Source: a virus. Taken from it: a DNA stretch of 19,970 nucleotides. Positions 2,391-19,745 of the stretch are shown here, piece by piece (position 1 is the first letter of the stretch; each line of letters starts with the position of its first letter). The translations under genes were made by a program, and so were the position numbers. The DNA lies in UHGV virus genome UHGV-0369446; one strand, 5' to 3'. Below the pieces are notes generated by a model. The model saw only the letters and a program-made list of their open reading frames with translations, was not told the origin of the DNA and made no database searches.

Positions 2391-2912
2391 TCAGCACGCG
2401 ATATCGAGAGTCAACTGCAGTTGCTCACGCCAGTACTCGACATTTGCTTCAATAACCGGCTTATCCCATCGCCAGCGAGCCATCTCTCTTGCCCCATTGC
2501 TGGCTTTTGATTTCCGGTCATCGCGAATGCGACATGCTTGCTCATATTTCTGCTGCTCAGTCAGTTCACCGCGAAGCAGACTATCAATGTGCAGGTCGCA
2601 CCATACGGAGAATTTCGGATCGCACCATCTTGCAAAGGCAACTGATAACTTTGGATGCAGCCATGTTCCGCCGCCCCTGTCCTTTCGTGCCTTGCTTGTT
2701 TTTACATACCCGGAATCACGGGTATGTAGAATTTTCGATGGTTCACCTGAATAAACCTCATCCAGAGCTCTAACGTATTCGAGAGTTTCAGCGTTGGACA
2801 ACCAGTGATCCAGACGCTTCCCGAAACGTTTTGCAATATCAGTGGCATTAATCCAGCCATCAGTATTGAAGCGGATAGGTTCGCCTTTGTAATTTAGTGG
2901 AACGATATTCAT
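2391..2912 (-). CDS. KilA-N domain protein
   Basis: 173-aa ORF. The N-terminal segment (NTDGWINATDIAKRFGKRLDHWLSNAETLEYVRAL) matches the KilA-N DNA-binding domain pattern as I recall it. Located between the lysis cassette and terS. Confidence 0.55.
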   Translation of the reverse strand: MNIVPLNYKGEPIRFNTDGWINATDIAKRFGKRLDHWLSNAETLEYVRALDEVYSGEPSKILHTRDSGYVKTSKARKDRGGGTWLHPKLSVAFARWCDPKFSVWCDLHIDSLLRGELTEQQKYEQACRIRDDRKSKASNGAREMARWRWDKPVIEANVEYWREQLQLTLDIAC

Positions 2913-5951: not shown

Positions 5952-6310
5952 GCGTTCTCCAGTTCGGTGATTTTTATTCCAAGCCTTCCGCCTGGTACTT
6001 TCACGCCACGAATTACGCGAATGTCATCGAATTGCTCGTCGTCTTCCGCAAATCCGGCGTGGATAAGGGAGTCGAGTAAACCTTTCAGGATGTTGTCGAG
6101 GTCGCGACGGCGGGAGTCCGGAACGTCTGCGATGACTTTGATACGGAGTCGTGATTTGGTGAAAATGTCTAACTTGAGTTGGCGGATGATTTGCTGAACG
6201 TCTTTTCGGTATTTCTGGCCTTTGTCGCTTATGTAATATTGGCTTCCCCGTCTTCGCCAGTAGGTATTCACCGACGGCGGGTATGGGAGCACAAACTGAT
6301 ATTCGTTCAT
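5948..6310 (-). CDS. rusA: RusA Holliday-junction resolvase
   Basis: 120-aa ORF with the RusA-like motifs PPSVNTYW and DSRRRDLDNILKGLLDSL, comparable to E. coli DLP12 RusA from memory. Confidence 0.88.
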   Translation of the reverse strand: MNEYQFVLPYPPSVNTYWRRRGSQYYISDKGQKYRKDVQQIIRQLKLDIFTKSRLRIKVIADVPDSRRRDLDNILKGLLDSLIHAGFAEDDEQFDDIRVIRGVKVPGGRLGIKITELENA

Positions 6311-6597
6311 GACTTAATCTTCCCCTCCTTCAGCAGTATCGCCTGCGTCCTGATCACGCCTTCGAGGTGGTAAAGTCTGGCGTCTTTGTTGTCGAGATTA
6401 TGGGTGCGTCGGTCGATTTCATCGTGACACGCGCTACAAGCCCATGCGCCGATCAGGTCGTCAGGCTTCATTCCCGTTCCGCAAATTCCAGCCATCCGGT
6501 AATGTGCCAGAACTGTAGTTTCAGGATTGCCATTGCATACGCCGTAAATACGTACCTGGCATTCTCTGCCGCGCGCTTCTTTGCGTAGGTTAGCCAT
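6307..6597 (-). CDS. DUF1364-family protein (YbcO-like putative nuclease)
   Basis: 96-aa ORF MANLRKEARGRECQVRIYGVCNGNPETTVLAHYR...CSACHDEIDRR, closely resembling E. coli DLP12 YbcO as I recall it. 4-nt overlap with the rusA start. Confidence 0.72.
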   Translation of the reverse strand: MANLRKEARGRECQVRIYGVCNGNPETTVLAHYRMAGICGTGMKPDDLIGAWACSACHDEIDRRTHNLDNKDARLYHLEGVIRTQAILLKEGKIKS

Positions 6598-6971: not shown

Positions 6972-7311
6972 TATTGGCCTCCTGCATCAGGAGAAAGACA
7001 ATCATGGCGGCGCGGAGAGGTCTGGTATCAAATATTGGGCTTACGCCTTTTGCATCCACACACCATTCAGTTAACTGGTCTAAGATAGAAATCCTGTATT
7101 TCTCAATAATCGGCCATGAAGCGCTCGGATCATTGCAGTAGTCAGGCAAATGATTTAATGGCTCAAAAGTTGTATCAGCATTTCCGTAATACCATTTGTT
7201 GGTGTTATTCCCTGATGTTTCCGGTTTACTTGCCCAAAGGCCTTTAAAAATTATGTCTCCTACCATTCTGTTAATTTCAAAATCACTTAACTGTGAATAA
7301 TCCATTGTCAT
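6964..7311 (-). CDS. hypothetical protein between ninE and ninF (possibly NinX-like)
   Basis: I place the start at the Met whose ATG overlaps the ninE stop (ATGACAATGG), giving about 115 aa. The position corresponds to ninX in P22-type nin regions. The family assignment is a guess. Confidence 0.45.
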
Positions 7312-7484
7312 TTCCTCGCACGATATCTTAGCCACCGGATATCCCACAGGTGGGCTGTGTAATTGAAGGTTTTTACGTCAGATTCTTTTGGGATTAGCTT
7401 GCGTTTATTTCTGGAGCGTTTCGTTGGAAGGTATTTGCAGTTTTCGCAGATTATGTCGGTGATGCTTCGTCGCTGTCGTCTCAT
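7308..7484 (-). CDS. ninE: NinE
   Basis: Trimmed to the internal Met. The sequence [58 protein letters not shown] matches lambda NinE from memory. Its ATG overlaps the stop of the upstream methyltransferase. Confidence 0.8.
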
Positions 7485-8008
7485 GCAGCCCTCCTGACGC
7501 CCTGCCCGATCGCCATCAATGCCGCTTTGGATACGGTAGTAAACATCCGTCGAGGACTGATGAACGGTCGCCAAATCAGCAGCATGGAGCCTTTGCTGTT
7601 TCCCTTCTTCTCCAGCCCTGTCGATGGTTCGATAAAATTAATCCGTCCATCAGTGATAATACGAACTTCGTCAACACTCTCCAGAGCCTTGCTGAACCAT
7701 CCGACAGACATATCCTCTGGCACAAGCATCACTACCGTCTGTCGCTGTTGTATACACTGCTCAGCGGCTTTTTCCACCCACGGCCTGATATTGCTGTACG
7801 GTGGGTTATTCCAGATTGCACCGTGGCTTACCCACTCAGAATTGAGCGCGTCGTCGTCCTCAGTTAGCCAGTGAGCGCACAGAGCATTTTTGTCGCTCGC
7901 TGCCGAATCCAGCCAGAATCCAAACTCAATATCCAGTGCATCAAAAAGCCAAAGCGGCGTTTGCCAGCAGTCCTTGTCGTGTGCTGGCGTATTTGATTTG
8001 ATAGTCAT
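7481..8008 (-). CDS. phage-type DNA N6-adenine methyltransferase (Dam-like, orphan)
   Basis: Start placed at [26 protein letters not shown] (ATGA overlap with the ninB stop). Contains the motif IWNNPPYS (the NPPY catalytic motif of N6-adenine MTases) and the WxTP start typical of small phage Dam-family enzymes. No adjacent restriction gene. Confidence 0.8.
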
Positions 8009-8445
8009 GCAGCCCGATCTCCCCATCGCGCTTTCCATTCGAGAGCCAGTCGCGCTTCGTCTGACCACTTAACGCCACGCTCTGTACCGAATGCCTGTAT
8101 AAGCTCTAATAGCTCCGCAAATTCGCTTACACGCATCCTGCTGGTTGACTGGCCTATTACCACAAAGCCATTCCCGGCAAGGTTAGGAACAACATCCTGC
8201 TGCTTTAATGCTGCGGTAAACACACACTTCCAGCTTTCTGCATCCAGCCAGCGACCATGCCATTCAACCTGACGAGAGACGTCACCTAAGCAGGCCCATA
8301 GCTTCCTGTTTTGGTCTAAGCTGCGGTTGCGTTCCTGAATGGTTACTACGATTGGTTTGGTTGGGTCTGGAAGGATTTGCTGTACTGCGTGAATAGCGTT
8401 TTGCTGATGTGCCGGAGATCGAATTTCAAAGGTTAGTTTTTTCAT
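8005..8445 (-). CDS. ninB: NinB (Orf-family recombination mediator)
   Basis: Trimmed to MKKLTFEIRSPAHQQNAIHAVQQILPDPTKPIVVTIQERNRSLDQNRKLWACLG..., which matches lambda NinB (146 aa) as I recall it. Confidence 0.9.
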   Translation of the reverse strand: MKKLTFEIRSPAHQQNAIHAVQQILPDPTKPIVVTIQERNRSLDQNRKLWACLGDVSRQVEWHGRWLDAESWKCVFTAALKQQDVVPNLAGNGFVVIGQSTSRMRVSEFAELLELIQAFGTERGVKWSDEARLALEWKARWGDRAA

Positions 8446-8457
8446 GACTTCCCTCTC

Positions 8458-8493
8458 CCCCAAATAAAAAGGCCTGCGATTACCTGCAGGCCT
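8458..8493 (-). terminator. tR2-like intrinsic terminator between ren and ninB
   Basis: Minus-strand 8-bp perfect stem AGGCCUGC/GCAGGCCU followed by UUUUUAUUU. Position matches lambda tR2 at the start of the nin region. Confidence 0.55.
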
Positions 8494-8518
8494 GTTATTA
8501 GCTCAGTGATGTAGATGG

Positions 8519-8809
8519 TCATCTTTTAACTCCATATACCGCCAATATCCGTTTCATCGTGGCACTCTGGCGACACTCCTTAAAAATCAGGTTCGTGCTC
8601 ATCTTTCCTTCCCGTTCTTCCTTGGTAGCAAACCGGTAATACACCGTTCGCCAGACCTTACCTTCGATAACCAGAAGACCTGCCCGTGCCATTTTAGCCG
8701 CGGCCTGATTTATGCTGGTTACTGTTGCGCCTGTTAGCGCGGCAACGTCCGGCGCACAGAAGCTATTATGCGTCCCCAGGTAATGAATAATTGCCTCTTT
8801 GCCCGTCAT
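8519..8809 (-). CDS. ren: Ren (Rex exclusion protection protein)
   Basis: 96-aa ORF MTGKEAIIHYLGTHNSFCAPDVAALTGATVTSINQAAAKMARAG..., matching lambda Ren from memory. Located directly downstream of P. Confidence 0.9.
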   Translation of the reverse strand: MTGKEAIIHYLGTHNSFCAPDVAALTGATVTSINQAAAKMARAGLLVIEGKVWRTVYYRFATKEEREGKMSTNLIFKECRQSATMKRILAVYGVKR

Positions 8810-11899: not shown

Positions 11900-12457
11900 T
11901 TGGCAAAAATAGATGATTATCAGCCAAGCCAAGTAGAAGTTGATAAAGTACTTTATTGTAAAAAAATAGTTAACTTTTCTGGCGTTAAATGGAAACAGAA
12001 ACCAAGTCGCTCTGATATGTGGCTACAAGCCCATATCATCCCCTTGGATGAGGATTGTATACCTATACAAGGGCTAAAGTTTGAACTGAAATGGAAACCA
12101 GATCAGGATTCAGAACCTGATGACCCGATTTCTTACCCTAAAATAAATATTATTGCTTTCTATCATAACAAGAGGGTTTTCGCGGTAGATACCTATCACT
12201 TTGACAAACACACGAATAGTTACAAGGTCGATCATCCGAAGTACCAAGATATCATTTACGGTGCTCACTACCATGTATACTATGAAGAAGCTGGATACTA
12301 TAGTGATAGAATAGCGTTTCCAATCGAAGATGACATAAACCCAGATGACCTGGTAGGGTATTGGAATTACTTCTGTAAACATCTGAACATAACTTACTCT
12401 GGGAGAATACCTTTACCGCTTGAAGATGAGTCGGGGCAAATGGGGTTTGGAATATGA
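11900..12457 (+). CDS. hypothetical protein A (185 aa) of a two-gene operon in the rexA position; function unknown
   Basis: ORF beginning 40 nt after the cI stop. The only in-frame start before codon 40 is TTG at 11900 (in-frame TAA at 11894..11896). AT-rich composition; acidic, Tyr/His-rich product (YGAHYHVYYEEAGYY); no hydrophobic segments. Its stop overlaps the start of gene B (ATGA). Confidence 0.6.
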   Translation: MAKIDDYQPSQVEVDKVLYCKKIVNFSGVKWKQKPSRSDMWLQAHIIPLDEDCIPIQGLKFELKWKPDQDSEPDDPISYPKINIIAFYHNKRVFAVDTYHFDKHTNSYKVDHPKYQDIIYGAHYHVYYEEAGYYSDRIAFPIEDDINPDDLVGYWNYFCKHLNITYSGRIPLPLEDESGQMGFGI

Positions 12458-13206
12458 TGTGCTCAACAGTGATCTCACAACTAGGTTTCGAATGCCATCC
12501 AATAGGCAAGACCTTGAGAATTATCAGTCCATTCACTTACTGTGATGATGGAGAGCATGTCGGTGCCTTTATCCGTGAAGTCAATGGTAGGTATTTAGTT
12601 AGTGACAGATGCGATGCCTTAATGAATATGGAGGCAAGAGGGATCTCGCTTACCAAAAAACGACTTGATGAGATACGACAATTACTGCTTAAAGAAGGCG
12701 CAGAACTCAATGCTCGAGGAGAAATCATTGCTTGGGCAACAGAAAAGGATGTCGGTGCGATTACATCGAACATAATTAGAGCTGGTATACTCGCATCAAC
12801 TTTGTCGTTAGACTGGTATCAGCCAGTTCAAGCTGAAAAGTTTGAAAGTATGGTTATTGATTATCTATATCACACAGAGCTTAGAGACGCACTTTCTCTT
12901 CGTGAAAACGTATATGGCTTGAGTGGACATCAAATTACCGTCCCTGTAACAATAAAAACCGACATACCTAAATACGTTTTTACATCAAGCGTGAAACACG
13001 GAGGAAGCTGGAATAGTGCTTACTCATTGCTTGGGAAACTAATTGATCTTAAAGCTTCAAGTGAGGAGTATAACAACAGATTTGTTGTTATAGACAGCGA
13101 AGCAATTGGTGATCAAATGCAACAACTCTCCTTACTCTTCCATGAATCAAGCCAAGTTCTACCATTCTCCAAAAGAGAGACTTGGGTTAAGAGACTTGCA
13201 GCATAA
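12454..13206 (+). CDS. hypothetical protein B (250 aa) of a two-gene operon in the rexB position; function unknown
   Basis: ORF starting ATGATG and overlapping the gene A stop. AT-rich. No membrane-spanning segments evident, unlike RexB. Followed directly by a strong intrinsic terminator. Confidence 0.65.
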   Translation: MMCSTVISQLGFECHPIGKTLRIISPFTYCDDGEHVGAFIREVNGRYLVSDRCDALMNMEARGISLTKKRLDEIRQLLLKEGAELNARGEIIAWATEKDVGAITSNIIRAGILASTLSLDWYQPVQAEKFESMVIDYLYHTELRDALSLRENVYGLSGHQITVPVTIKTDIPKYVFTSSVKHGGSWNSAYSLLGKLIDLKASSEEYNNRFVVIDSEAIGDQMQQLSLLFHESSQVLPFSKRETWVKRLAA

Positions 13207-18944: not shown

Positions 18945-19745
18945 ATGACCATCCACTTTCACGGCAGCCCAATATGGGGGGATGAGCATGCCCCTACAGA
19001 TATGCTGATTAAAGCCCTTTACCGTGATGGTGGGGCTTTTGTTTCATTTGCCAGACCAGAGCAGATGAAAAAGATTGCCATGTTCCCTTGTGATATACGC
19101 CTTGATAACGGCGCTTTTAGCGACTGGATGAAAGCATTAAAGAAAGGCACTCCGGTAGACTGGAGTAAGAGACGAGCAAAATTCTACGACTTTGTTGGGA
19201 AGTGGTTCAGCAGAATTGAATGGTTTCTTATACCTGACGTTATCGAAGGGACAGAGGCAGAAAACGACGAGCAGATTGAGTGTGTTCCTGATTGGCTAAA
19301 ATCAAAAGCGGTTCCTGTCTGGCATACCGACGAATCAATTGAACGTCTTTTACGCCTTTCTGGCAAATTTGAATGGGTGGCGATTGGATGCTGCGGCCCA
19401 CACAGGCACATACGCTCTAAATGGTGGGAACAGAGAATGGATGAAGTTTTCACTGAACTTTATATCAATCGTAATTTGAAAGTGAAAATTCATGGTCTTC
19501 GAATGCTCGACGTGAGAGTTCTTGGTATGTATCCGTTCGCCAGTGCGGATTCTACTAATGTTGCTGTTAACGTACCGAAGACAGAGAAGCGATTTCCTGA
19601 GATTACCGACAAACTGGCACGTACAGCTGTACTTCGCGCTGCTATTGAAAAGGTGCACCCGCCATCGATATCAGCATGGGTAGACAGAAAGATGAGAGAG
19701 CCGGCGCAAGCCGGTTTTTTATTTGAATTCACCGACGCCGCTTAA
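18945..19745 (+). CDS. hypothetical protein (266 aa), uncharacterised accessory gene
   Basis: Long ORF with a start 13 nt after the preceding terminator. Contains a Cys/His cluster (AIGCCGPHRH). Followed by terminator-like hairpins. No confident family assignment. Confidence 0.6.
   Translation: MTIHFHGSPIWGDEHAPTDMLIKALYRDGGAFVSFARPEQMKKIAMFPCDIRLDNGAFSDWMKALKKGTPVDWSKRRAKFYDFVGKWFSRIEWFLIPDVIEGTEAENDEQIECVPDWLKSKAVPVWHTDESIERLLRLSGKFEWVAIGCCGPHRHIRSKWWEQRMDEVFTELYINRNLKVKIHGLRMLDVRVLGMYPFASADSTNVAVNVPKTEKRFPEITDKLARTAVLRAAIEKVHPPSISAWVDRKMREPAQAGFLFEFTDAA

Follow-up and report, generated by a model that had tools for sequence, protein, structure and literature searches.

The closest described counterpart of the gene studied here is M.EcoVT2Dam, the orphan methyltransferase of prophage VT2-Sa, which has GATC specificity (PMC6602927). 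Dam-like activity is stated to have been demonstrated for VT-2 in passages of a later paper that cite Radlinska and Bujnicki 2001 (PMC7139368). The 'dam' product of phage Phi24B, which is 100% identical to the protein NP_050531 of VT2-Sakai, was detected in lysogen cultures, the levels of its transcript shift significantly upon induction, and HK97 has a counterpart at 99% (PMC3342100). In phage T1, DNA from a dam- host is sensitive to DpnI, and once the phage dam gene is deleted, GATC sites carry no methylation in a dam- host and only partial methylation in a dam+ host, and the burst drops to ~60% even in the presence of host Dam, which shows that T1 Dam acts on GATC and makes up for limiting host Dam; it has no significant sequence similarity to the host enzyme (PMC10470545). 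PamA, encoded by a Staphylococcus aureus prophage, has an NPPY site, is inactivated by the P65T substitution, methylates GATC and, by means of this methylase activity, affects the expression of virulence genes of the host (PMC12435837; for the virulence effect also PMC13076061). Here we analysed a dam gene of the same general description in a 19,970-base stretch of the UHGV virus genome UHGV-0369446 (hereafter the window). Very probably, it codes for a compact, single-domain, S-adenosylmethionine (AdoMet)-dependent N6-adenine DNA methyltransferase of GATC specificity, an orphan enzyme produced in the delayed-early phase that supplements host Dam.

The gene lies on the minus strand, from an ATG at 8008..8006 to a TGA at 7483..7481, and its translation gives a product of 175 residues. 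This bears out a preliminary description of the window, which had reported a 175-residue open reading frame (ORF) with NPPY and WxTP motifs at this place and left the strand, here found to be minus, unstated. The longest mechanical ORF starts at an upstream GTG at 8068 and would yield 195 residues; we retained the ATG at 8008 because full-length homologues have 175 residues and the family profiles begin at residue 2-4. A Shine-Dalgarno-like GGAG is found 10 nucleotides 5' of the ATG. Of note, it is overlapped by a GATC site, at 8016, just 5' of the start codon. The gene and its motifs are as follows.

7481..8008 including the stop codon, minus strand: dam, phage N6-adenine DNA methyltransferase (PF05869 / TIGR01712), assigned from profiles and near-identity to VT2-Sakai orf32
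7955..7966, minus strand: codons of W15-Q16-T17-P18, the N-terminal WxTP resembling motif X of gamma-class enzymes, from translation and conservation
7898..7912, minus strand: codons of L33-D34-S35-A36-A37, 'LDxAA', at the place of the glycine-rich AdoMet-binding motif I, from conservation
7796..7807, minus strand: codons of N68-P69-P70-Y71, catalytic motif IV of amino-methyltransferases, from translation and conservation, and also present in T1 Dam and in the Dam protein of Haemophilus phage HP1

The profile search that the preliminary description had proposed as a check (Pfam Dam / TIGR01712) was strongly positive, both scores being well over the cut-offs. The product matches PF05869, 'DNA N-6-adenine-methyltransferase (Dam)', at 219.1 bits (cut-off 28.1, E-value 3.7e-65) over positions 1-167 of the 169 of the profile, and the NCBIfam equivalog TIGR01712, 'phage N-6-adenine-methyltransferase', at 265.6 bits (cut-off 97.05, 1.2e-79) over all 165 positions (1-165). 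In PHROGs it falls into phrog_111, 'DNA methyltransferase' (8.3e-88). When 1.84 billion cluster representatives were scanned in full with HMMER, 8973 related clusters were obtained at E<=0.001.

The window Dam and VT2-Sakai orf32 (NP_050531) are identical at 174 of 175 residues, the sole difference being residue 51 (D here, A there). Identity amounts to 99.4% with orf10 of 933W and to 98.3% with the 'DNA adenine methyltransferase' of phage 434. In VT2-Sakai, the annotation of the first 30 kb contains no methyltransferase other than orf32, which sits between ninB and ninE, and the same ninB-dam-ninE arrangement is found in 933W. Phages ev207, ev017 and PhiR57_1 carry the 1171-bp ninB-dam-ninE stretch with 100% identity, and 424 phage records match it at 80% identity or more, with the gene annotated as DNA N-6-adenine methyltransferase. 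By tblastn, homologues of the protein were located in 2158 phage records. Homologues from Serratia and Morganella are 64-74% identical to it. The 528-bp gene is also present at no less than 95% identity in 1566 of 5426 complete Escherichia coli genomes (~29%), including the type strain; these copies are annotated 'phage N-6-adenine-methyltransferase' and lie between NinB and NinE, and the dam DNA of E. coli Nissle 1917 is 100% identical. The gene is already known, being almost identical to that of a phage enzyme with a name and a long-standing annotation. The earlier recognition of a methyltransferase was correct but ordinary, the finding being annotated already in hundreds of phage records and in this ~29% of complete E. 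coli genomes. Its practical value is that of a correct annotation, in which the gene of this phage or prophage is recorded as an allele of the orphan Dam of the VT2-Sakai/933W/434/HK97 type.

On the basis of the 174/175 identity to VT2-Sakai orf32 and of the literature on M.EcoVT2Dam, T1 Dam and PamA, GATC is most likely the sequence recognized by the window Dam. Conservation was assessed by aligning it with 37 diverse representatives at 33-67% identity. Residues T17, D34, N68, P70 and R122 are invariant across the 38 aligned homologues, and W15, P18, A37, W59, P69, L95, W104, F125, N137 and S141 are conserved at 90% or above. The window protein has all the family-conserved residues, W15, T17, P18, D34, A37, W59, N68, P69, P70, Y71, R122, F125, N137 and S141, which make up the WxTP, LDxAA, NPPY, GR..F and GN.KGS signatures. 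Because they are conserved in homologues as diverse as these, NPPY and WxTP are genuine family signatures and not the chance matches that the preliminary description had envisaged as a possible refutation. In the PF05869 family, the invariant Asp of LDxAA takes the position of motif I, and D34 with its surrounding motif may have a role in cofactor binding.

An AlphaFold model of moderate confidence, computed with homologues at 59-86% identity as input (predicted local distance difference test score, pLDDT, 74.9; predicted template modelling score, pTM, 0.76), has the class I (Rossmann-like) fold of AdoMet-dependent methyltransferases. At the C-terminus, a short beta-hairpin and a helix are added to a bare catalytic domain; residues 42-53 form the least confident segment (pLDDT <50). 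Two matches in the PDB, SdiA and Med31, were dismissed as chance, the latter being due to a common 'WCNPPYS' string. In four other proteins (P0136, P0137, P0144 and P0237), a PF05869 domain is joined to a C5 cytosine DNA methylase, which points to DNA as the probable substrate of the family.

Comparisons with better-known enzymes place this protein among the small phage methylases. T1 Dam (YP_003925) and the HP1 Dam (orf13) are 32% and 35% identical to it, respectively; both belong to PF05869, and the three proteins have in common WxTP, LDxAA, NPPYS, GR..F and GN.K. Relative to the window Dam, T1 Dam is extended by 45 residues at the N-terminus and contains an insertion further inside, and the T1 and HP1 genes are found in other genomic contexts, without ninB or ninE. 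PamA resembles the window Dam by its published description, as a small prophage-encoded orphan enzyme with NPPY; the window protein shares 34% identity with a phietavirus homologue that has its NPPY at residues 64-67 and belongs to PF05869. PamA and the window Dam differ in their setting, since the host of PamA is a Gram-positive bacterium without Dam, in which a new methylome is created, whereas the window enzyme duplicates a host activity.

Dam of E. coli, T4 Dam and DpnM are alpha-class enzymes of PF02086, of which the window Dam is a functional analogue from another family. It has no match to MethyltransfD12 (PF02086), PF05869 being its only Pfam match. Alpha-class enzymes have FxGxG as motif I ahead of an inserted recognition domain, and a DPPY towards the C-terminus; in the window Dam, WxTP...NPPY lies close to the N-terminus, FxGxG and an inserted domain are absent, and the chain is ~100 residues shorter. 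The designation 'Dam-like' given to it earlier therefore holds for the function, insofar as it probably methylates GATC, but not for the family, as the protein is no family-level homologue of E. coli Dam or of T4 Dam. On the evidence of its motif order (TP motif, cofactor strand, NPPY) and of profile and residue matches, the protein is nearest to gamma-class enzymes, cut down to the bare catalytic domain. M.TaqI, M.BseCI, type I HsdM and CamA, which belong to that class, are 380-610 residues long and have large recognition domains or specificity subunits, which the window Dam lacks.

Several phage enzymes were considered as relatives and set aside. With 175 residues and matches to PF05869 only, the window Dam belongs neither to the Hia5/Hin1523 subfamily nor to that of M.EcoGII and PhiOS31_p25. 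Hia5 and Hin1523 are relatives of the alpha-class Dam proteins, with FxGxG and a DPPY at about residue 194 (PMC3299994). PhiOS31_p25, an enzyme of relaxed specificity from a Serratia phage, has as homologue L24 of phiP27 (PMC7556043), a protein of 352 residues encoded upstream of stx2e. The 'rRNA methyltransferase' of Stx prophages described by Gong et al. is an MT-A70/DPPW protein encoded near int and is not dam; M.EcoPA8orf6770P has the DPPW motif, the MT-A70 domain, a partner, PNB-2, encoded upstream and a location near int (PMC10810198). The window Dam has NPPY, no match to the MT-A70 Pfam family, and a gene located in the nin region.

The genomic context is that of a lambdoid early operon, in which the following elements are relevant to dam.

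8005..8445, minus strand: ninB (orf recombination mediator), upstream neighbour (PF05772, 1.1e-54), the TGA of ninB and the ATG of dam overlapping in ATGA at 8008..8005
7308..7484, minus strand: ninE, downstream neighbour (PF05322, 1.8e-41), the TGA of dam and the ATG of ninE overlapping in ATGA at 7484..7481
8470..8493, minus strand: terminator-like hairpin followed by TTTTTATTTGG, between ren and ninB, resembling an intrinsic terminator and located upstream of ninB-dam-ninE
6307..6597, minus strand: YbcO-family putative nuclease of 96 residues, directly upstream of rusA (PF07102, 1.8e-44; phrog_131 'HNH endonuclease')

The sequence and the PF05772 and PF05322 matches agree with the earlier placement of dam between ninB and ninE with an ATGA overlap on each side. 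On the plus strand, the overlaps read TCAT at 8005-8008 and at 7481-7484, i.e. ATGA on the coding strand at both ends of dam, and the same 4-base overlaps of ninB/dam and dam/ninE are present in 933W, VT2-Sakai and ev207. The minus strand carries, in this order, cII, O, P, ren, ninB, dam, ninE, ninX, ninF, a 70-residue ORF, ybcO, rusA, ninH and a lambda-type Q, followed by lysis and terminase genes, and the plus strand cI, two ORFs, N, ral, ea10, kil, gam, bet and exo. The window shares with VT2-Sakai and 933W the ninB/ninE slot of dam, the overlaps and the orphan status of the gene, but the surrounding phage differs from VT2-Sakai by its lambda-type O/P/ren, its lambda Q and the absence of stx genes from the window.

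The spacer between ren and ninB, including the hairpin (window 8440..8525, minus strand), is identical to the lambda spacer at 83 of 85 positions. The location of the hairpin is what we take to be the position of tR2 in lambda. In VT2-Sakai, the region corresponding to this spacer is unrelated and much longer, with mosaic joints flanking the conserved ninB-dam-ninE block. Around dam itself, a search for promoters gave no signal beyond chance, with 2 promoter-like sites against 1.5 expected. The early expression from pR after N antitermination suggested in the preliminary description is a sound inference, given the co-orientation of dam with cII-O-P-ren, the hairpin at 8493..8470 and the spacer nearly identical to that of lambda; the tR2-like hairpin and the presence of N in the window support N-dependent, delayed-early expression of dam, which we consider probable.

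We infer the catalytic activity, timing and biological role of this dam allele as follows. The gene would be transcribed as part of the delayed-early pR operon (cro-cII-O-P-ren-tR2-ninB-dam-ninE...Q), with N needed to pass the tR2-like terminator, and its translation is probably coupled to those of ninB and ninE via the ATGA overlaps. The product, in effect an allele of M.EcoVT2Dam, most likely turns GATC into G(m6A)TC (m6A, N6-methyladenine). As phage DNA replicates fast, host Dam would be outpaced, and the phage enzyme would top up methylation so that progeny genomes are fully GATC-methylated, with a better phage yield as the expected result. Methylated progeny may also be shielded from methylation-sensitive GATC-cutting restriction enzymes in other hosts.

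A number of points weigh against this reading. GATC is depleted in the window, with 51 sites against 89 +/- 8.4 expected from 200 dinucleotide-preserving shuffles, none of which had as few as 51; this sits oddly with a simple benefit of methylating everything. We know of no lambdoid phage in which a role of the phage Dam has been shown in a Dam+ E. coli host. The link to a characterized enzyme has two indirect steps: the equivalence of M.EcoVT2Dam with VT2-Sakai orf32 is a deduction from the annotation of the first 30 kb, and the activity of VT-2 Dam is taken from citing papers rather than from the original report by Radlinska and Bujnicki (2001). The single difference from orf32, D51 in place of A51, falls in the segment of residues 42-53 modelled with pLDDT <50. 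The small phage Dam family PF05869 as a whole lacks a classical glycine-rich motif I, cofactor binding by the window Dam being presumed from the activity of the family and not from an observed site, and no solved structure of any family member was retrieved by sequence and profile searches of the PDB. Finally, what phage Dam enzymes do is described as little understood to date (PMC7556043).

The rival explanations differ in what they take the enzyme to modify and for what purpose. It might be a GATC methylase selected for regulation, acting from the prophage on lysogeny stability, induction or host gene expression, rather than for topping up. This is unlikely in our estimation, although it has several points in its favour: stable lysogeny by 933W is said to need host Dam (Murphy et al. 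2008, as cited in PMC3342100), the Phi24B protein, identical to NP_050531 of VT2-Sakai, was detected in lysogen cultures (PMC3342100), and PamA alters host virulence gene expression via its methylase activity (PMC12435837; PMC13076061). However, dam belongs to the repressed pR operon and is preceded by a tR2-like terminator, promoter signals nearby do not exceed chance, and the Phi24B signal may stem from spontaneously induced cells. In Dam+ E. coli, moreover, GATC is already methylated, and extra Dam in a lysogen should therefore add little. A very unlikely alternative is that the protein is an active DNA adenine methyltransferase with relaxed or non-GATC specificity, which would confer broad anti-restriction in the manner of M.EcoGII, Hia5 and PhiOS31_p25. 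The small size of the window Dam, which has no recognisable separate target-recognition domain in its 175 residues, and the frequency of non-specific adenine methylases in enterobacterial prophages (PMC3299994; PMC7556043; PMC6602927) would fit with it. Nevertheless, the known non-specific enzymes Hia5, Hin1523 and PhiOS31_p25 come from other families, while GATC is the target of those members of this family whose specificity has been reported, namely T1 Dam, VT-2 Dam and, probably, PamA, and the window Dam is one residue off the VT2-Sakai protein.

Methylation of RNA, be it ribosomal (rRNA), transfer (tRNA) or messenger (mRNA), or the need for a partner subunit encoded by an adjacent gene, has a precedent in M.EcoPA8orf6770P of Stx prophages, which was formerly annotated as a DNA adenine methylase. 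That precedent is an MT-A70/DPPW protein from another locus, and PF05869 domains occur fused to C5 DNA methylases, which makes this explanation highly improbable. The chance that dam provides the modification component of a restriction-modification system, with its endonuclease encoded nearby, is close to nil. The candidate would be the YbcO-like nuclease 0.9 kb downstream, as the gene at 6307..6597 on the minus strand matches PF07102, 'putative nuclease YbcO', and phrog_131, 'HNH endonuclease', but it has no match in PADLOC, and a GATC cutter would be lethal in dam- cells only and pointless in Dam+ E. coli. In addition, ybcO is missing from ev207, PhiR11_1, VT2-Sakai and 933W, all of which have dam, the gene of ev207 and PhiR11_1 being the same as that of the window. 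The best PADLOC model for Dam is 'oMTase' (orphan methyltransferase, 1.6e-19), which also speaks against a restriction partner. No restriction-endonuclease family was found among the window ORFs scanned with Pfam, PHROGs, NCBIfam and PADLOC, which did not include every ORF, or among those annotated in ev207, to which part of the window owes its annotation through 99.7% identity. The nucleases found in the window are of recombination type only (Exo, RusA and YbcO-like). The claim that dam has no restriction endonuclease partner nearby thus agrees with the ORFs scanned and annotated and with the PADLOC assignment, and a supplementary GATC methylase remains our preferred interpretation.

The position of dam raises a question of its own. 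As stated in the preliminary description, lambda has no methyltransferase at this place: NinC, annotated as a phosphoadenosine phosphosulfate (PAPS) reductase, and NinD are encoded there between NinB and NinE. The slot after ninB is thus occupied by Dam in the window and by the PAPS-reductase-like NinC and NinD in lambda (L005:1582-2624), with the same 4-base overlap to ninB, and in one protein (P0195) a PF05869 domain is fused to a PAPS_reduct domain. It is conceivable, if rather unlikely, that different enzymes of nucleic-acid modification can replace one another at the position between ninB and ninE. If so, the coupling to NinB/Orf could mean that Dam acts on newly replicated or recombining phage DNA, for instance to exclude MutH-directed mismatch repair, and lambda NinC would be predicted to be a DNA-modification enzyme as well. 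The sharing of the slot, together with the PAPS_reduct and C5 fusions, hints that NinC-type proteins may likewise act on DNA.

Three other loci of the window deserve mention. The 266-residue ORF at 18945..19745 on the plus strand matches phrog_887, 'queuine tRNA-ribosyltransferase' (3e-102), with no match in Pfam, NCBIfam, PADLOC or the PDB sequences, and among 50,697 phage records its whole stretch was found only in HK106 (97.8%). From its sequence, it may code for a Tgt/DpdA-like base-exchange enzyme, in which case the phage would have two genes for nucleic-acid modification. Between cI and N, at the place of rexAB in lambda, two overlapping ORFs (11900..12457 and 12454..13206, plus strand) correspond to phrog_2017, phrog_1960 and DUF1828, with PADLOC matches to subunit B (4.7e-10) and, weakly, subunit A (4.8e-4) of PDC-M24. 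The pair at 11900..13206 is likely a prophage-encoded defence pair, with PDC-M24 as the candidate system. Lastly, a KilA-N protein (PF04383, 2.8e-24) is encoded at 2391..2912 on the minus strand, between the lysis and terminase genes; it also has a sub-threshold ORF11CD3 match (E-value 0.01, 16.5 bits for a cut-off of 25) and a weak match to PDC-S22 in PADLOC.
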